DNA of 16,327 nt from IMG/VR virus record IMGVR_UViG_2645728010_000001; one strand, 5' to 3'. Of the stretch, positions 2,575 to 11,592 are shown piece after piece. Each line of letters opens with the position of its first letter. Position 1 is the first letter of the stretch. The notes under the pieces were generated by a model. That model had not been told where the DNA came from. It made no database searches and saw only the letters and a program-made list of their open reading frames with translations. A program made the translations under genes and the position numbers. Source of the DNA: a virus. Lineage: Duplodnaviria; Heunggongvirae; Uroviricota; Caudoviricetes.

Positions 2575-2982
2575 TTATTTTATTGATTTATTTTTACGCG
2601 CTTTAAGCATTTCTTCGAAGAGTTTGTTGAAGTTTTCTACTCTTGCGCGCATTTCAGACAGCAAGGCTTCCTGCTCGGAAGATGGAAGAGCATCGAATAA
2701 TTCGATCAATTCTTTGTGGTTGGGAGTTAGCTCTGTTTCCACATGAAGTTCTTGTGCAGGCACTGGTGCCTTGTCTTCGTCACCAAACATTAGCCATGTA
2801 GGTGAGCACTTCAGAGCATCCGCTAAAGCAAACAATCGTTTTCCGACTGGCTGGGTTTCGTCTCTTTCCCATTGTGAAATTGTGACGTGAGCAACTCCAG
2901 CGAGGCGCGCAGCTTCTCGTTGTGTTAAGCGTAATTCTTTTCGTCGCGCCAGAACTCGCTGGCCTAGGGTTCTTGTATCCAT
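2575..2982 (-). CDS. dicA: DicA-like XRE-family HTH repressor (prophage immunity/division control)
   Basis: 135 aa; N-terminal HTH (LRLTQREAARLAGVAHVTISQWERDET), SPTWLMFGDEDK and C-terminal MRARVENFNKLFEEMLKARK segments match recalled DicA; divergent from a Cro-like gene. Confidence 0.85.
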   Translation of the reverse strand: MDTRTLGQRVLARRKELRLTQREAARLAGVAHVTISQWERDETQPVGKRLFALADALKCSPTWLMFGDEDKAPVPAQELHVETELTPNHKELIELFDALPSSEQEALLSEMRARVENFNKLFEEMLKARKNKSIK

Positions 2983-3004: not shown

Positions 3005-3049
3005 TTGACTTAGGTATCCCGCGCACAATAATGTTAGAAAAGTCTAACA
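3005..3049 (+). promoter_or_regulatory. dicC-type promoter (-35 TTGACT, 16-nt spacer, -10 AATAAT) overlapped by operator TGTTAGA-N4-TCTAACA
   Basis: Hexamers read directly; palindrome tgttagaaaagtctaaca at 3032-3049 overlaps -10/+1; GAGGGGG RBS and ATG follow. Confidence 0.5.
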
Positions 3050-3290: not shown

Positions 3291-3795
3291 ACAGGCTCGT
3301 GAGGCTCTGGATGCCTGGATATGTCGACCAGGAATGACACAGGAGCAGGCGACGATATTAATCACTGAAGCATTCTGGGCTTTGAAAGAGCGCCCGAACA
3401 TCGATGTTCAGCGTGTCACATATGAAGGTGGCGCGGTTGATCAGCGAGCGCTTAGCGTTAATCGAGTGAAGATATTCGAACGCTGGAAGGCTATCGACAC
3501 CAGGGATAAGCGTGAAAAGTTCACAGCGCTAGTGCCTGCAATTATGGAGGCTATCCGGATTAGTGATTTCAGGTTGTATCGTGAGATCAGTGATGGAAAA
3601 AGTATTACGTACATGATCGCCGGGTTAAATAAAGAATATGGCGATGTGGTGGAATCCGGACTGCTTTTTGCAGATCCTGCCGTTGTAGATCGTGAAACTG
3701 ACGAACTTATAGAAAAAGCAATTGCTTTCAAGCTTGCGTATCGACAGCAATACCAACAAAAAGCTGGATGGAATTATGAGTCTTCTTTTTGCTGA
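3274..3795 (+). CDS. hypothetical early-region protein (possibly YdaT-like, a CII-type regulator)
   Basis: 173-aa ORF overlapping the 3' end of the cro-like gene and the 5' end of the replication gene; assignment to YdaT is by position only. Confidence 0.45.
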   Translation: MKITPEQAREALDAWICRPGMTQEQATILITEAFWALKERPNIDVQRVTYEGGAVDQRALSVNRVKIFERWKAIDTRDKREKFTALVPAIMEAIRISDFRLYREISDGKSITYMIAGLNKEYGDVVESGLLFADPAVVDRETDELIEKAIAFKLAYRQQYQQKAGWNYESSFC

Positions 3796-4741
3796 ACGCC
3801 CACTGGTTATAAACACGCAGCTGGCAATGAAAATCGGCTTAAACGAAGCCATTGTTTTGCAACAACTGCACTACTGGTTGAGAGATACCAACTCCGGTAT
3901 GGAATGTGATGGTGTTCGCTGGATTTATAACACAACGGAACAATGGCTGGAACAGTTCCCATTCTGGTCAGAGTCAACGTTAAAGCGCGCGTTTGCAAGT
4001 CTGAAAACGCTGGGGCTTTTGCGTTGTGAAAAGCTCAATAAATCAAAGCGCGATATGACCAATTTCTACACGATCAACTATGGGAGCGAGCTTTTAGATG
4101 GTGGCAAATTGAACGAATCCATCGGTTCAAAATGCGCCGCTCCATCAGGTCAAAATGACACGATGGAAGAGGTCAAAATGAAACGCTCCATTGGTTCAAA
4201 ACGATCCAATGTCATCGGGTCAAAATGGCCTGATGATCTTACAGAGAATACAACAGAGATTACTACAGAGAATAAAAACACTTTTCGTCCGGAAGCTTCG
4301 CAACCGGACCCGCAGACGACTGAACAGGATTTTTTAACCCGGAACTCCGACGCGGTTGTGTTTAGTGCGAAAAAACGCCAGTGGGGTAGCAGGGAGGATT
4401 TGGCGTGTGCGCAGTGGATCTGGGGGCGGATCGTGGGTCTCTACGAACAGGCAGCCAGTGATGATGGCGAGATCATGCGACCAAAAGAGCCTAACTGGAC
4501 TGCCTGGGCCAATGACGTGCGCACAATGCGGATGCTGGATGGCAGAAGCCACAGACAAATTTGCGAAATGTTTGGTCGGGTTCAGCGAGATCCATTCTGG
4601 GTAAAAAACATCATGAGCCCGTCAAAGCTCCGCGAAAAATGGGACGAACTGGTCATCCGCCTGGGACGTTCACCTGTACAGCGTTGTGTTAATCATATTT
4701 CTGAACCGGATACAGAAATTCCGCCTGGTTTCAGAGGATAA
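3776..4741 (+). CDS. phage replication initiation protein (lambda O-like organisation, iterons inside the gene)
   Basis: 322 aa from ATG 3776 (ORF open from 3722); central IGSK-encoding region coincides with five DNA iterons; located after the cro/CII-like genes. Confidence 0.65.
   Translation: MSLLFAERPLVINTQLAMKIGLNEAIVLQQLHYWLRDTNSGMECDGVRWIYNTTEQWLEQFPFWSESTLKRAFASLKTLGLLRCEKLNKSKRDMTNFYTINYGSELLDGGKLNESIGSKCAAPSGQNDTMEEVKMKRSIGSKRSNVIGSKWPDDLTENTTEITTENKNTFRPEASQPDPQTTEQDFLTRNSDAVVFSAKKRQWGSREDLACAQWIWGRIVGLYEQAASDDGEIMRPKEPNWTAWANDVRTMRMLDGRSHRQICEMFGRVQRDPFWVKNIMSPSKLREKWDELVIRLGRSPVQRCVNHISEPDTEIPPGFRG
4121..4280. repeat. putative replication origin: five iterons GGT(T)CAAAA(T/C)G at 23-24 bp spacing plus adjacent A+T-rich ACAGAGAATA repeats
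   Basis: Direct repeats begin near 4124, 4148, 4171, 4194 and 4218; followed by acagagaatacaacagagattactacagagaataaaaaca; lies inside the initiator ORF as lambda ori lies in O. Confidence 0.55.
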
Positions 4742-4781
4742 GTGTTGATTTCAGGTCATGAGGTAATTTTAAGGGGGAGTT

Positions 4782-5141
4782 GTGGCAAAAGTTTTTACAC
4801 AAGAAGAGCGGGAAAAAATTAAAGGGCAGGTGGTGGAACTCGTGCGCCAGAGCGGTCGTGAGACGTTACGGCAACTGGAAGCTAAAACAGGTGCGACTAG
4901 ATATCTGATGAGCGTTCTTGCCAGAGAGCTGGTAGCCAGTGGCGATGTATACAACTCCGGCTACGGGTTATTCCCGTCTGAACAGGCGCGTAAGGACTGG
5001 CAAAACGCCCGCAAAAAACTCTCGAGGGCAAAGGTGAAGAAACCTGCTGTGGTTGATCCGGACCTTATCTGGTCATTATACGTCAAGAGCAGGAGATTTA
5101 TGTGCTGGTTCTCAAATGCACGCTGGCTATTGTGGCTGTAA
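4782..5141 (+). CDS. hypothetical protein (119 aa), possible remnant of a replication-module gene
   Basis: GTG start after AAGGGGGAG RBS; N-terminal HTH-like segment; hydrophobic C-terminal tail; no recognised family. Confidence 0.4.
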   Translation: MAKVFTQEEREKIKGQVVELVRQSGRETLRQLEAKTGATRYLMSVLARELVASGDVYNSGYGLFPSEQARKDWQNARKKLSRAKVKKPAVVDPDLIWSLYVKSRRFMCWFSNARWLLWL

Positions 5142-5345: not shown

Positions 5346-5558
5346 ATGCTAGACACATGTAGGTTAGCCTCTTACGTGCCGAAAGGCAAGGAGAAGCAGG
5401 CTATGAAGCAGCAAAAGGCGATGTTAATCGCCCTGATCGTCATCTGTTTAACCGTCATAGTGACGGCACTGGTAACGAGGAAAGACCTCTGCGAGGTACG
5501 AATCCGAACCGGCCAGACGGAGGTCGCTGTCTTCACAGCTTACGAACCTGAGGAGTAA
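5346..5558 (+). CDS. mok: Mok-like in-frame upstream extension of hok (modulator of killing)
   Basis: 70-aa ORF in frame with hok from ATG 5346 (MLDTCRLASYVPKGKEKQA-MKQQ...), the same architecture as recalled MokC/HokC. Confidence 0.45.
   Translation: MLDTCRLASYVPKGKEKQAMKQQKAMLIALIVICLTVIVTALVTRKDLCEVRIRTGQTEVAVFTAYEPEE
5403..5558 (+). CDS. hokD: Hok/Gef-family type I toxin (HokD/RelF-like)
   Basis: 51 aa MKQQKAMLIALIVICLTVIVTALVTRKDLCEVRIRTGQTEVAVFTAYEPEE; AAGGAG RBS 7 nt upstream; single TM helix plus conserved C-terminal Hok segment. Confidence 0.85.
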   Translation: MKQQKAMLIALIVICLTVIVTALVTRKDLCEVRIRTGQTEVAVFTAYEPEE

Positions 5559-5626: not shown

Positions 5627-5655
5627 AACCCGCTTCGGCGGGTTTTTGTTTTTAT
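5627..5655 (+). terminator. rho-independent terminator downstream of hok
   Basis: aacccgc-ttcg-gcgggtt hairpin followed by tttgtttttatttt; an additional perfect 8-bp hairpin (ggcgaggg...ccctcgcc) at 5567-5587 may be the hok mRNA 3' fold-back element. Confidence 0.6.
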
Positions 5656-6372: not shown

Positions 6373-7023
6373 GTGCGGGTATTACTTCGACCTGTTCTGG
6401 TACCGGAACTTGGGCTGGTGGTCGTTAAGCCGGGCCGTGAATCCATGCCGGTATTCCACAATACCCGGGTATCCTGGTGGGCGGTCCGCAATCAGCTGGC
6501 GGACGCGCTACCGGAAGCGGTATTACGTCGCTCGCTGGGATTACCAGCGGAAAAAATCTGCTCGGTGTACCGCGAAAGCGACATCGTACCGGGAGAGCAG
6601 ACCGCCACCAGCATATTGAAACAGCGCACAAAAAATCTTGCACCGTTGCCTCACGCCCACCAGCAACAAAACCCATCACAGGAAAAGACGGTGGTAAGCA
6701 TCACCGTTGATCCAGAGTCTCCGGAATCTTTCATGAAGCTGCCTAAACGTCACCGGTGGGTTAAGGAGAAATACACACGCTGGGTTAAGACACAGCCGTG
6801 TGCTTGCTGCGGTATGCCAGCCGACGATCCGCATCATCTGATTGGTCACGGGCAGGGCGGAATGGGAACCAAAGCACATGATCTCTTTGTTTTGCCTTTG
6901 TGCAGAAAGCATCACGACGAGTTGCATACGGATACCGTGGCATTTGAAGAGAAGTATGGCTCCCAACTGGAGCTGATTTTTCGATTTATCGATCGCGCGC
7001 TGGCAATTGGTGTGCTGGCCTAA
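6373..7023 (+). CDS. DUF968-type protein with C-terminal Cys/His (HNH-like) motif (ydfU-like)
   Basis: 216 aa; C-terminal CACCG...DPHH...H...CRKHHDELH cluster; immediately upstream of Q as ydfU is in Qin. Confidence 0.55.
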
Positions 7024-7573: not shown

Positions 7574-8098
7574 TTATTGTTTAACCCATAATAGTTCATT
7601 GACATTGAATCCCAACTTTTGAGCGGTACGCACATAGTCTGCTTTTACATTATCTGGAATAGTTTGGGTCCTTGCCAGAATCCATAGGTATTCTCTGTTC
7701 GGACCACTGACAAGAGCATACTTATACTCATCATCCAGTTTGATTACATTATAGCCACCATAGAAGGGGCCAAAAAACGAAACTTTCAACGCTGCAGTTT
7801 TAGTATCTCCAGTAAAGTATGCTTTACCTTCGCTCTCGCTCCATTTGTTTTTCGTTGGATCGTATCCACGGTTAAGTACGCGAATCCCTCCGTCGTTCCG
7901 TTTTTCATAAGTAGCGCTGACCTGTTCCAGACCACGTTCGAACCAGTTCTCGAGGCGAGCTATTTCATACCATTTTCCGAGGTAGCGGTTGGCGTCAAAA
8001 TTTGTAATCGGCTGCACACCTTTAGGTGGTGTCGGAGCCTTACATGCTATAAGAGTGAAAGAGAGTGCAATGCCAGTCAACACAGGCCATAACTTCAT
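7574..8098 (-). CDS. outer-membrane lipocalin lipoprotein, Blc family (diverged)
   Basis: 174 aa; signal peptide with lipobox LIAC; lipocalin motifs NFDANRYLGKWYEIARLENWFERGLE, FGPFYGGYNVI, YLWILART; AGGA RBS. Confidence 0.85.
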   Translation of the reverse strand: MKLWPVLTGIALSFTLIACKAPTPPKGVQPITNFDANRYLGKWYEIARLENWFERGLEQVSATYEKRNDGGIRVLNRGYDPTKNKWSESEGKAYFTGDTKTAALKVSFFGPFYGGYNVIKLDDEYKYALVSGPNREYLWILARTQTIPDNVKADYVRTAQKLGFNVNELLWVKQ

Positions 8099-8290
8099 AA
8101 TAAATCCTGTACTTTTGATAGTTGAGAGTAAGTATGAAAGATAGATGAGTACGACCGATCACTTAAAGAACTTTCCTACTATATTAGGAATAGTCAATAA
8201 CAGAAAAATTGTCAGTGATGAAGCCAGAAAGGCAATTTAGTCCGTGCACTACAAAGTTTATGTGTTAATGAATTAGTCAAGGGGGAGGAA

Positions 8291-8440
8291 ATGATAAAAA
8301 AACCTGTGATTGGGATCAGCGGTTGTTTGGGCGGTTCTGCTGTTCGTTTTGATGGTGGTCACAAAAGAGATGACTTTTTAATGGACAAATTAGTGGAATG
8401 GGTAACATTCAGACCAGTATGTCCGGAAATGGCTATATGA
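8291..8440 (+). pseudogene. 5' fragment of a DUF523-type gene truncated by IS3
   Basis: Strong RBS GGGGGAGG; MIKKPVIGISGCLGGSAVRFDGGHK resembles DUF523 N-termini; ORF stops in a TGA supplied by the IS3 terminal repeat; 49 aa where about 150 is expected. Confidence 0.45.
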
Positions 8441-8467
8441 TCCTACCCACGTAATATGGACACAGGC

Positions 8468-9334
8468 CTAAGCGAGGTTCTGGTTTTCAAATTGTTCCGG
8501 ACTGAGGCCGCCACACCAACTGTGCCGCCGCCACCGATTGTAATCACATTCGATATAATTAAACACCGTTGCCCGCATTATTTCCCGGCTGATAAAGTGT
8601 TCTCCATGGATACATTCCACTTTCAGCGAATGAAAGAAGCTTTCCACGCAGGCATTATCGTAGCAGCAACCTTTTGCGCTCATACTTCCACGCAGATTAT
8701 GCCGCTTCAGTTGCGCCTGATAATCTGCTGAACAGTACTGGCCTCCACGGTCCGTGTGAACGATAACGTTCCGGGGCCTCTTACGCCGCCACAGCGCCAT
8801 CTGCAGGGCATCGCAGGCCAGTTGCGCCGTCATGCGTGGCGACATTGACCAGCCAATAACGGCACGTGACCACAGGTCAATGACCACTGCCAGATACAGC
8901 CAGCCTTCATCTGTACGTAAGTACGTGATGTCTCCTGCCCACTTCTGGTTCGGGCCACTGGCGTAAAAATCCTGCTCCAACAGATTTTCTGACACAGGCA
9001 GGCCGTGTGCGCGGTAGCTGACCGGGCTGAACTTCCGGGAGGCCTTTGCCCTCAGTCCCTGACGGCGCAGGCTTGCCGCCACGGTTTTTACGTTAAAGGG
9101 GTAACCCTGAGCACGCAGTTCATCCGTCAGGCGTGGGGCACCGTAACGCTGTTTTGACCGGGTAAAAGCCGCGAGGACAACGCTGTCGCAGTGTTGGCGG
9201 AACTGCTGACGCGTGCTTATCCTTGTCCGCCGCTGACACCACGTATACCAGCCGCTGCGGGCCACCCGGAGCACGCGGCACATTGCTTTGATGCTGAACT
9301 CAGCCTGATGTTTTTCAATAAAGACATACTTCAT
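8468..9334 (-). CDS. insF: IS3 transposase OrfB (DDE integrase-like)
   Basis: 288 aa; matches recalled IS3 OrfB; overlaps orfA in ATGA arrangement. Confidence 0.9.
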
Positions 9335-9630
9335 TTCAGGCGCTTCGCGAAGTATGTCGCGGCCTTTTGGAGGATAGCCAGCTCTTCATCCCGTTCTGCC
9401 AGCTGGCGTTTGAGACGTGCAATCTCGGTAGACATCTCCAGTTCACGTTCAGAAGACGTCTGCTGATTTTGCTGTTTACTGCGCCAGTTGTAGAGTTGTG
9501 ATTCATACAGGCTGAGTTCACGGGCTGCGGCAGTAACACCGATGCGTTCAGCAAGCTTCAGGGCTTCACTGCGAAATTCAGGCGAATGCTGTTTACGGGG
9601 TTTTTTACTGGTTGATACTGTTTTTGTCAT
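9331..9630 (-). CDS. insE: IS3 transposase OrfA (HTH)
   Basis: 99 aa from ATG ([31 protein letters not shown]...); the ORF track's longer start is an upstream GTG. Confidence 0.9.
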
Positions 9631-9663
9631 GTGAGTCACCTCTGACTGAGAGTTTACTCACTT

Positions 9664-11592
9664 AACAGCGCACAGGCGGCAGCGGCCTCGCAGACTGCAT
9701 CGGCAAACTCCGCGACAGCAGCTAAAAAATCAGAAAACAACGCGAAAAATAGCGAGACAGCAGCAAAGACGAGCGAAACCAACGCAAAGTCCAGCCAGGC
9801 GGCAGCGAAAACAAGCGAAACGAATGCCAAAACCAGTGAAACTGCGGCGAAAAGCAGTCAGGCTGCAGCAGCCGAAAGCGAGAGTGCGGCAGCCGGTTCT
9901 GCGACTTCAGCAGCTGGATCAGCAACTGCTGCAGCTAACAGCCAGAAAGCAGCGAAGACGAGCGAAACTAACGCAAAGTCCAGCCAGACGGCAGCGAAGA
10001 CCAGCGAAACGAATGCCAAAGCCAGCGAAACTGCGGCGAAAAACAGTCAGGATGCAGCGGCCCAAAGCGAGAGTGCCGCAGCTGGTTCTGCAAGTGCGGC
10101 GGCTTCTTCTGCCACTGCATCAGCCAACAGTCAAAAAGCTGCAAAAACCAGTGAAACCAACGCAAAGGCGAGCGAGACTGCGGCGGCTAACTCGGCGAAA
10201 GCATCCGCTGCAAGCCAGACGGCTGCAAAAGCAAGTGAAGACGCAGCCAGAGAGTATGCAAGCCAGGCTGCGGAGCCGTATAAACAAGTTTTGCAGCCGC
10301 TTCCCGATGTGTGGATACCGTTTAACGATTCACTGGATATGCTTGCTGGCTTTTCGCCTGGTTATAAGCAAATAACTGTAGGTGATGATGTTATTAAAAT
10401 GCCATCCGATAAGGTTGTTAGCTTCAAACGCGCATCAGGTGCAACATACATTAATAAATCAGGAGTATTAACCGTTGCTGAAGTTGACGAACCGCGATTT
10501 GAACGAGAAGGTTTGCTGATTGAAGGACAAAGAACCAACTATCATCTTAATTCACTTACGCCATCTAAGTGGGGAGCTACAACAAGTGTAACTATAACAG
10601 AAAGTGGTGTTGATGAGTTTGGCTTTACTTATGGGCGGTTTCAAATAAAGGACGAAAAAATTGGGACAAATACGACAATGAATATCGCTGCGGTTTCAGG
10701 AGGAAGAGGTGTCGATGTTACTGGAACTGAAAAGTATGTTACAACATCATGTCGTGTAAAAAGCGATAGTGCTAATATACAATGTCGTATAAGATTTGAA
10801 AGATATGACGGGTCCGCATATTTTTATCTGGCAGATGCATATCTTAATATAACAGATATGTCCATTAGGAAAACGGGAGGAGGGGCTGCAAGAATAACCG
10901 CCCGAGCGGAGAAAGAATCTAATGGATGGATTTATTTCGAGGTTACATATCAATCTGAAGCTATTGATAATATGGTTGGCTCTCAGATCCAAATTGCTCC
11001 ACCTGTTTCACCTGGAACTTATTTGGGCGGGGAATATTTGGATGTTACGACACCACAATTTGAAGGCGGCTCATGCGCATCATCTTTTATCATTTCCGAT
11101 ACAGTTGCATCAACGCGAGCAAGCGATATTGTTACATTGCCTTGTAAAAATAACATGGCCAGCAAACCTTTAACCTGCATGGTTGAAGTGAATAAAAATT
11201 GGTCTATAGCACCAAATTCCGCGCCTAGAATTTATGATATAACAGGATTTAAAACAAAAGACGACGCTTTTGTTTTTGCATTCAGAAATACAGCAGGTAG
11301 TGTAGGAACTCCATATGTTCAATTTGGTAATCCAATATCATTTCCACCTGGAAATTACCCAAGAAAGATTATCGCTGTATATAGAATAAAAAGCGATGGC
11401 AAGTTTCAGGCTGGCTGCAATGGGGTTTTATCAACACCAGCATCAACAACGTGGAAGAGTGTTAGTGGTGCTACAGGTATAAGGATTGGAGGCCAGACTA
11501 CAGCCGGCTTACGTCATTTATTTGGTTATATCAGGAATTTTAGAATATGGCATAAAGAATTAACCGATGCGCAAATGGGAGAGATAATATAA
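9664..11592 (+). pseudogene. side tail fibre gene stf, 5'-truncated at the IS3 junction
   Basis: Open frame without start codon begins at the IS3 boundary; N-part is repetitive (KTSETNAKASETAAK-type repeats), then EPYKQVLQPLPDVWIPFNDSLDM junction and a low-GC C-terminal domain ending GLRHLFGYIRNFRIWHKELTDAQMGEII. Confidence 0.8.
9766..10200 (+). repeat. tandem 189-bp (63-codon) repeats with 45-bp sub-repeats inside stf
   Basis: Near-identical units starting about 9766, 9955 and 10144; boundaries approximate. Confidence 0.6.

Follow-up and report, generated by a model that had tools for sequence, protein, structure and literature searches.

The window analysed in this work is a stretch of 16,327 nucleotides from a Caudoviricetes record (IMG/VR IMGVR_UViG_2645728010_000001), and its subject here is a replication initiator gene with a putative origin inside it, which lies after cro- and cII-like genes in the rightward early region (Table 1). 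The segment 3776–5200 was found to be 100% identical in derivatives of E. coli B (BL21, BL21(DE3), C41, C43 and REL-type strains). The BL21(DE3) copy of the window belongs to the Qin prophage, between rspB and ydfI, and RefSeq labels its initiator gene 'hypothetical protein'. Of 5426 complete E. coli genomes, 1587 retain 80% or more of the region. Judged from gene content and alignment, the region is an intact initiator plus origin unit of the O-only lambdoid type, carried by an otherwise defective prophage, and the initiator ends in a peptide that closely resembles the C-terminal tail of the host protein DnaT.

The open reading frame (ORF) of the initiator encodes 321 aa, and not the 322 aa given in an earlier reading of the window that was made from the sequence alone (hereafter, the sequence-only reading). 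An alternative TTG start at 3722 would yield 339 aa; the relatives are annotated from the ATG. No Pfam family was assigned to the protein and NCBIfam gave nothing beyond a match to the tail. The AlphaFold2 model showed a winged-helix N-domain (residues ~10–105, with block means of the predicted local distance difference test score, pLDDT, mostly at 70–89), a disordered linker (114–178), a confident helical C-domain of the lambda O type (180–297, pLDDT about 90) and a disordered tail (298–321). Residues 1–110 gave no Pfam match at E < 0.1 to an N-terminal origin-binding domain of the Phage_rep_O type. The best Foldseek matches of the N-domain were the N-domain/iteron complexes of staphylococcal plasmid RepA proteins (4pql, 5kbj), and the domain also matches other initiator families (phrog_6493 and phrog_428) and staphylococcal phage proteins. 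The C-domain (residues 170–294) was aligned by tblastn with positions 39158–39496 of lambda (36% identity, E 2e-16) and has in common with the C-domain of lambda O the invariant motifs WG..EDL, PNW..WAN.IRLM and SP.KLR.KW; a search of solved structures with the C-domain profile returned no relative by sequence. The lambda-like layout that the sequence-only reading had described, with the origin within the initiator gene, is supported. The initiator is 98–99% identical at the amino acid level in the phages HannyBb, PhiR42_1 and mEp460_ev081.

Transcription of the initiator presumably starts at the pR-like promoter and would then cross the origin, and no plus-strand terminator was predicted downstream of this promoter before 5627–5644. 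The last 20 nt of the YdaT/cII-like gene (3776–3795) are at the same time the first 20 nt of the initiator gene, an overlap that is conserved in HannyBb, mEp460_ev081 and PhiR42_1 and suggests translational coupling.

Five iterons followed by an A+T-rich repeat were confirmed inside the initiator ORF. The iteron units occupy positions 4120–4142, 4143–4165, 4166–4188, 4189–4211 and 4213–4235 (start-to-start distances of 23, 23, 23 and 24), and each of them is an imperfect palindrome of the form CATYGG-N11-CCRATG. The core GGTCAAAATG is present in three exact copies (at 4148, 4171 and 4218), and the variants GTTCAAAATG (at 4125) and GTTCAAAACG (at 4194) carry one or two mismatches. The phased chain is far beyond chance, and the significance is limited to this phased array: five copies were observed, 200 dinucleotide-shuffled versions of the gene had three at most and this number only once, and the bare 10-mer core, with two mismatches allowed, showed no enrichment over the whole window (23 found versus 21.5 expected). 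Since the 23-nt period cannot be divided by three, the identical DNA core is read in different frames, and it is translated in all three of them, as IGSK in iterons 1, 4 and 5, as SGQN in iteron 2 and as EVKM in iteron 3. The statement of the sequence-only reading that the iterons encode IGSK repeats stands for the former three and fails for iterons 2 and 3; the use of three frames indicates that the repeat is maintained as DNA and not as peptide.

Directly downstream of the iterons, 2.8 copies of the 12-mer ACAGAGAATACA were found at 4241–4274. This stretch is the most A+T-rich and purine-skewed segment of the initiator gene, with a GC content of 0.33 at 4220–4279 versus 0.45–0.63 in the flanks and an AT skew of 0.40. 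By analogy with lambda ori, unwinding presumably takes place here, and the initiator presumably binds to the iterons. Both arrays are located inside the ORF, in its portion for the predicted disordered linker. HannyBb shows no change in any of the five iterons over positions 4060–4340, and two iteron positions are altered in mEp460_ev081. In mEp460_4F5, whose O protein is 71% identical, both the iteron and the 12-mer array persist with unchanged spacing, and the A+T-rich stretch, too, is conserved in relatives. An internal repeat array is also present in PhiR29_1 (O about 44% identical over residues 67–321), with a different repeat sequence. Mid-gene arrays with a period of 21–24 bp are general in this initiator family and their sequence changes with the N-domain. 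The sequence-only reading had made its case for an origin depend on the conservation of the repeats as iterons in related phages, and in these relatives they are conserved.

Table 1. Features of the window that are discussed in the text (positions refer to the whole stretch)
Feature	Position	Strand	Basis or remark
pR-like promoter, TTGACT-16-AATAAT	3005–3032	+	Upstream of cro/dicC-like gene; 10/12 consensus matches, consensus match only
YdaT/cII-like gene, 173 aa	3274–3795	+	Pfam YdaT_toxin, E 4e-6; phrog_163 CII-like activator, E 9e-41
Initiator gene, O-like, O-only type, 321 aa	3776–4741	+	phrog_391 replication initiation O-like, E 1e-91
Five 23-bp dyad-symmetric iterons	4120–4235		Core GGTCAAAATG; presumed binding sites of the initiator N-domain
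A+T-rich, purine-skewed stretch	4236–4280		ACAGAGAATACA 12-mer array; presumed DNA-unwinding element
DnaT-like tail peptide, last 20 residues (...IPPGFRG)	4679–4738	+	QRCVNHISEPDTEIPPGFRG; match to E. coli DnaT 160–179
DUF977/LygF ('Ren-like') gene, 119 aa, 3'-truncated	4782–5141	+	Pfam DUF977, E 2.5e-14; phrog_142
hok	5403–5558		
Lipocalin gene	7574–8098	–	In replaced lysis/head region
2-Thiouracil desulfurase-family gene fragment	8291–8440		In replaced lysis/head region
IS3 element	8468–9639		In replaced lysis/head region

The absence of a P- or DnaC-like loader, which had been noticed from the sequence alone, was confirmed with three sources. No P-, DnaC- or DnaB-like gene was detected with Pfam in 20 ORFs of the window (most of the large ORFs outside the IS3, pinQ, ydfK and ydfJ genes), no loader or helicase was found with PHROGs among seven ORFs of the replication region, and RefSeq lists no loader for the identical stretch of BL21(DE3). 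As positive control, YdaV and the proteins of two loci (L095 and L097) were used, and they matched IstB_IS21. Downstream of the initiator there are, as had been described, a 119-aa ORF and then hok. The profile matches identify the 119-aa ORF as a truncated member of the DUF977/LygF family and not as the loader homologue that the sequence-only reading had considered it might prove to be. The family match covers only residues 1–82/86 of the protein (the profile has about 116–134 positions and the intact relatives 133–140 aa); residues 1–99 are native, and unrelated DNA past a deletion joint at 5078 supplies the final 20, at which window 5078/5077 corresponds to HannyBb 4920/6282 and 1361 bp are missing with respect to HannyBb.

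Complete phages carry the same unit. HannyBb (45,272 bp) contains terminase, portal, head, tail, lysis and integrase genes, and its early genes follow the order repressor, cro-like, cII/YdaT-like, O (321 aa) and DUF977; the annotation of this genome includes no helicase, loader or primase, and the O-like gene is its only replication gene. The gene order of PhiR42_1 and mEp460_ev081 matches that of HannyBb, the O-only layout is also present in mEp460_4F5 and PhiR29_1, and the spacer between O and DUF977 is of 40 nt in the window and in HannyBb alike. Because complete phage genomes carry a 98–99% identical O with matching iterons and no loader, the lack of a loader is, judged by these genomes, the native state of the module and not a truncation. 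Two alternatives had been left by the sequence-only reading, namely direct recruitment of host factors by the initiator's C-terminal domain, or a truncated module with a relic origin, and a comparison with intact relatives had been called for. For the O/ori unit that comparison speaks against the second alternative, since HannyBb, PhiR42_1 and mEp460_ev081 have the same O and iterons and no loader. What stands of it is that the prophage is defective, that the DUF977 gene is truncated and that some relatives with a 93–95% identical O do have a DnaC-like gene. This is the case of six O proteins, after which ydaV (DnaC-like) begins at a distance of 7 nt, followed by a ydaW-like gene and, where the sequence extends, by DUF977-sized ORFs. 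Derivation of the window from such an O-ydaV-ydaW-DUF977 relative by simple deletion was considered and rejected, since the homology ends exactly at the stop codon of O and the spacers are unrelated; the position of this break indicates that O-ydaV and O-only are alternative modules and not deletion products.

With an O-family gene in the early right operon and no other replication gene, in the window as in HannyBb, the module belongs by its gene content to the recognised O-only lambdoid kind. These phages were 34 of 314 Enterobacteriales lambdoid phages in a 2025 survey, and their replication is called 'not yet understood' there (Genome Res 2025, PMC12315714). The complete phage records, together with the laboratory-grown O-only phage LLS, point to replication by this module without any phage-encoded loader. 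With O and ori both intact, it is plausible that the origin is active in the decayed prophage.

One important question is what takes the place of the loader, and here the extreme C-terminus of the initiator is relevant. Its last 20 residues share 14 identities with the product of the BL21 dnaT gene (pairwise BLASTP, E 4e-8), and the two proteins align nowhere else. Compared with solved structures, the initiator gave a match in its final 21 residues alone, to the very end of the C-terminus of E. coli DnaT (2ru8, 6aep, 9zbt_D), the NCBIfam DnaT model was matched at positions 160–179 of 179, and the conserved DnaT tail pattern ...SEPD..IPxGFRG is present in the initiator. The three-helix-bundle domain of DnaT (PF17948) gave no match in the initiator; E. 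coli DnaT scores E 4e-21 with it. Conservation among 105 DnaT orthologues reaches 97% in the seven terminal residues (IPxGFRG), versus 89% in the folded C-domain and 79% in the N-domain. The DNA coding for the O tail differs from dnaT at many synonymous sites; hence a recent capture of dnaT DNA was rejected, and the tail peptide is under selection and not recently copied. The initiator is labelled 'Primosomal protein I' (DnaT) by RAST in the mEp460_ev081 and mEp460_4F5 records, a label that is misleading as a family assignment and, judged by the alignments, overstates the relationship because the similarity is confined to the last 20 residues. Direct recruitment of host factors by the C-terminus of the initiator is thus the better supported of the two alternatives mentioned above, with the difference that the signal lies in this DnaT-like tail and not in the globular C-domain.

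The association between tail type and loader type was analysed in 80 loci from species-representative genomes (L090–L169), which were drawn via an alignment of C-domains with different tails; each locus was searched over ±6 kb with P-family and DnaC-family references. All 35 loci with a Trp-rich tail (WNxxEAW.., DWIYGVDL or W.EG..) contained a P-type gene, which abuts or overlaps the stop codon of O, and no DnaC-like gene. No P-type gene was found at the 17 loci with a DnaT-like tail (ending in G[FW][RK][GSC]), two of which had a DnaC-like gene and 15 neither type (Fisher p = 5e-14 for DnaT-like versus Trp-rich, counted on the 52 loci). The tail QDYRAG..F of Oxalobacteraceae was accompanied by a DnaC-like gene, and by no P-type gene, in 7/7 loci. 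After clustering at 70% identity, 11 DnaT-like and 19 Trp-rich clusters were obtained, and none of them mixed these two tail classes. C-domain identity to the window was 62–74% in P-partnered proteins, 65–70% in those with canonical IPxGFRG tails and 57–70% in all 17 DnaT-like ones; by these alignments the P-partnered and DnaT-tailed groups are told apart by the tail and not by the globular C-domain. The window-type N-domain and GGTCAAAATG iterons were also found with a Trp tail plus P (L112 and L116), which indicates that the DNA-binding and the loader-specifying ends assort independently. The pattern suggests that lambda O binds P through its Trp-rich tail. A second loader-less type was observed among these loci, formed by initiators of about 340–385 aa with an RWN[SKA][IL]W tail (L120, L121, L122, L129 and L142); they have no DnaT tail, and no P- or DnaC-like gene lies within 6 kb in any of the five loci.

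A DNA-pattern scan of viral contigs for IPxGFRG followed by a stop codon gave 119 matches, all of them at 3' ends of initiator-like genes, with at least five architectures. Among the matches with enough downstream sequence, a P-type gene was found in none, an adjacent DnaC-like gene in 24, a DnaC-like gene about 7 kb away in one and no loader in 77. The Rac-type protein YdaU (phage record MN652886, 1228–2016) showed 37% identity (E 2e-9) to DnaT residues 93–179, ends in ...LPDSAIPPGFRG and is encoded directly 5' of the DnaC-like YdaV. The placement of this YdaU (ending ...NTVSLPDSAIPPGFRG) before YdaV mirrors the host operon, in which dnaT lies directly upstream of dnaC. The O protein of LLS (PQ299149, 34213–35067), with HTH_36 and Phg_2220_C domains, ends in ...DTKIPEGFRG and is accompanied by no loader. 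The linker of this protein carries SDASK-type repeats. The genes that follow other DnaT-tailed initiators vary (YfdN/PerC-like, DUF1627, Dam, MT-A70, ParB-HTH). ORFs of 411–445 aa downstream of some of these initiators were considered as DnaB-like helicases and rejected, since Pfam identified them as ParB-HTH proteins.

We propose that rightward transcription from the pR-like promoter would express the initiator and pass through the origin, that dimers of the winged-helix N-domain would bind the five dyad-symmetric iterons and that the resulting nucleoprotein complex would open the adjacent A+T-rich 12-mer array. With no P-type loader provided by the phage, the flexible DnaT-like tail would recruit a DnaC-type helicase-loader complex, which for the window and the loader-less complete phages may be the host DnaB6-DnaC6, and for some close relatives a phage DnaC paralogue (YdaV-like) with the host DnaB. 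We give this overall explanation, an O-only unit with tail-recruited DnaB-DnaC, a probability of about one half, and the contact of the tail with DnaB/DnaC likewise stands at roughly even odds. A broader generalisation is put forward more tentatively, as somewhat less likely than not: the extreme C-terminal peptide of lambda-O-type and related initiators might specify the helicase-loading system that is used, IPxGFRG being a docking motif that hands DnaB-DnaC to opened DNA both for the restart preprimosome and for loader-less phages, in which P would be replaced by a 20-residue mimic of the host tail. The mimicry of the DnaT tail and the rule that links tail and loader are what is new here; the O-only kind was already known. 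Nothing linking the DnaT tail to phage initiators was found in the literature, the coverage of which was incomplete and is not proof of absence, nor was the tail-loader rule found in the literature examined, and the passages of PMC12315714 that were consulted do not mention a DnaT-like tail.

Several points weigh against recruitment of DnaB-DnaC by the tail. The only role reported for the DnaT tail is a twofold contribution to the affinity for single-stranded DNA (ssDNA) and a contribution to cooperativity: DnaT without residues 154–179 has a doubled apparent Kd for dT30 and a lower Hill coefficient (PMC4132743). No documented contact of DnaT with DnaC or DnaB was found in the literature, and the descriptions of the 2026 preprimosome structures consider the recruitment of DnaB/DnaC 'unknown' and suggest the N-domain of DnaT, not the tail, as recruiter (PMC13377028, PMC11087952). 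In addition, the association data are comparative and phylogenetically non-independent, the lack of a recognisable loader within 6 kb leaves room for an unrecognised one elsewhere, and the RWNxxW class indicates that a DnaT tail is not the sole route to the loader-less state.

The main rival explanation is that the tail binds PriA or PriB and that the opened origin is handled as a D-loop or phiX174-type primosome assembly site would be, with no direct contact with DnaB-DnaC. The lack of a documented contact of DnaT with either protein fits this route, as do the structures 9ZBT/9ZBU, in which the C-terminal domain of DnaT docks on PriA and the linker on PriB, and the aid that RecBCD is reported to give to the growth of LLS (PMC12315714), which is O-only and has the same tail. 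However, the cryo-EM description assigns PriA to the C-terminal domain and PriB to the acidic linker of DnaT and names the tail in neither contact, and no similarity to the bundle or the linker of DnaT was detected in the initiator. This route also leaves unexplained why the tail repeatedly lies directly upstream of DnaC-like genes (dnaT-dnaC, ydaU-ydaV, O-ydaV) and never occurs with P-type loaders, and we regard it as unlikely. Next to it comes a role of the tail as an ssDNA-binding or filament-promoting element that would stabilise the open A+T-rich region, with loading dependent on something else, for example the globular C-domain or host DnaA. The effect of losing residues 154–179 on the binding of DnaT to dT30 agrees with such a role; yet a generic tail would be equally useful to P-partnered initiators, and 0/35 of them carry it, all 35 being Trp-rich. 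The near invariance of the last seven residues in DnaT and their retention on at least five unrelated initiator bodies are, moreover, what is typically seen in short linear motifs with a protein as docking partner, and we consider an ssDNA role improbable.

The O/ori unit of the window might also be a non-functional relic, or O-only modules might rely on a loader provided in trans by another prophage. The decay of Qin is in line with this (frameshifted integrase, partial exoVIII, IS3 insertion, loss of lysis and head genes, truncated DUF977 and DUF968), as is the presence of ydaV right after O in the relatives with a 93–95% identical protein; the K-12 host used to grow LLS carries the ydaV gene of Rac, which would count for a loader in trans. 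Against a relic, O is full length and 98–99% identical to its relatives, complete phage genomes have identical iterons, the 40-nt spacer between O and DUF977 is that of HannyBb, the region is widely kept among E. coli genomes, and the end of the homology with the ydaV-bearing relatives exactly at the O stop codon indicates an alternative module, not a deletion scar. We therefore consider this explanation rather unlikely. An unrecognised loader beside O, either DUF977/LygF or the YdaT/cII-like protein, is very improbable: both are small proteins encoded next to O, in the window as well as in its closest relatives, but neither is a constant partner of DnaT-tailed initiators, whose downstream genes vary, the DUF977 gene of the window is truncated, and Rac-type modules contain DUF977 together with a DnaC-like loader.

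The remainder of the Qin prophage was also inspected. Its RefSeq content in BL21(DE3) comprises a frameshifted integrase, a partial exoVIII, dicB, a DicA-like repressor (window 2575–2982), a DicC/Cro-like gene, hokD, rem, the Q antiterminator, IS3, truncated tail-fibre genes, pinQ, ydfK and a truncated ydfJ; with these frameshifted, partial and truncated genes, the E. coli B/BL21 Qin prophage is defective when taken as a whole. The DUF968/HNH gene (6373–7023) is shortened at window 6470–6480, where about 390 bp are deleted with respect to HannyBb (HannyBb 7683 to 8074), and it is annotated as partial in RefSeq. After the Q antiterminator, at 7574–9639, the lysis and head regions have been replaced by other genes (Table 1). 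Positions 9650–10290 consist of highly repetitive DNA with many overlapping ORFs on both strands, for example the repeated KPVKLRRKAVRLQQPKARV, and fall within a 5'-truncated 'head spike fiber' pseudogene.

The interest of the module lies in two questions. The replication of O-only lambdoid phages, about one in nine lambdoid phages in the 2025 survey, becomes testable with ordinary E. coli tools, and the recruitment of DnaB-DnaC by the PriA-PriB-DnaT preprimosome, open after the 2026 cryo-EM work, becomes testable as well. The same tail is present on at least five unrelated phage initiator bodies, beside DnaC-like genes or no loader and never beside P-type ones, a pattern that suggests a single short peptide as the connection of both problems. 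The module is present in BL21, a standard protein-expression strain, where an intact, repressor-controlled origin could in principle fire in situ.

Among known systems, the ori-O-P module of lambda is alike in having the origin in the initiator gene, dyad-symmetric iterons with a period of about 23 bp followed by an A+T-rich stretch, a position in the rightward early operon after cro/cII-like genes and a homologous C-domain. It differs in its N-domain, since that of the window is of another family (about 46% identical to the N-termini of staphylococcal phage initiators), in having four iterons of other sequence instead of five, in the presence of a P gene, which the window lacks, and in its Trp-rich tail TDWIYGVDL, in contrast to IPPGFRG. 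The O-only phage LLS resembles the window in its single O-family gene, the lack of a helicase or loader and the tail IPEGFRG, whereas its O has HTH_36 and Phg_2220_C domains. The likeness to E. coli DnaT resides in the last 20 residues, which are 70% identical and include the invariant IPxGFRG end, and in the disorder predicted or reported for both tails; unlike DnaT, the initiator has no similarity to the N-domain, acidic linker or three-helix bundle, and it would be targeted by sequence-specific binding to iterons and not by PriA/PriB. The Rac pair YdaU-YdaV and the host pair dnaT-dnaC also have the gene of a DnaT-tailed protein directly before that of a DnaC-family ATPase, as in the O-ydaV order of the 93–95% identical relatives, but the window has no DnaC-like gene, and the body of YdaU is of the DUF1376 type with a DnaT-like C-domain and not lambda-O-like. 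Staphylococcal plasmids of the RepA_N type also have iterons inside the rep gene, and the C-domain of their initiators engages host replication proteins. These initiators (RepA of pSK41 and pTZ2162; 4pql, 4pt7, 5kbj) are winged-helix iteron binders and the best structural matches of the N-domain; the match is nevertheless weak (Foldseek E 0.01–0.03, 15–18% identity), and these initiators differ from that of the window in host range, C-domain and plasmid context.

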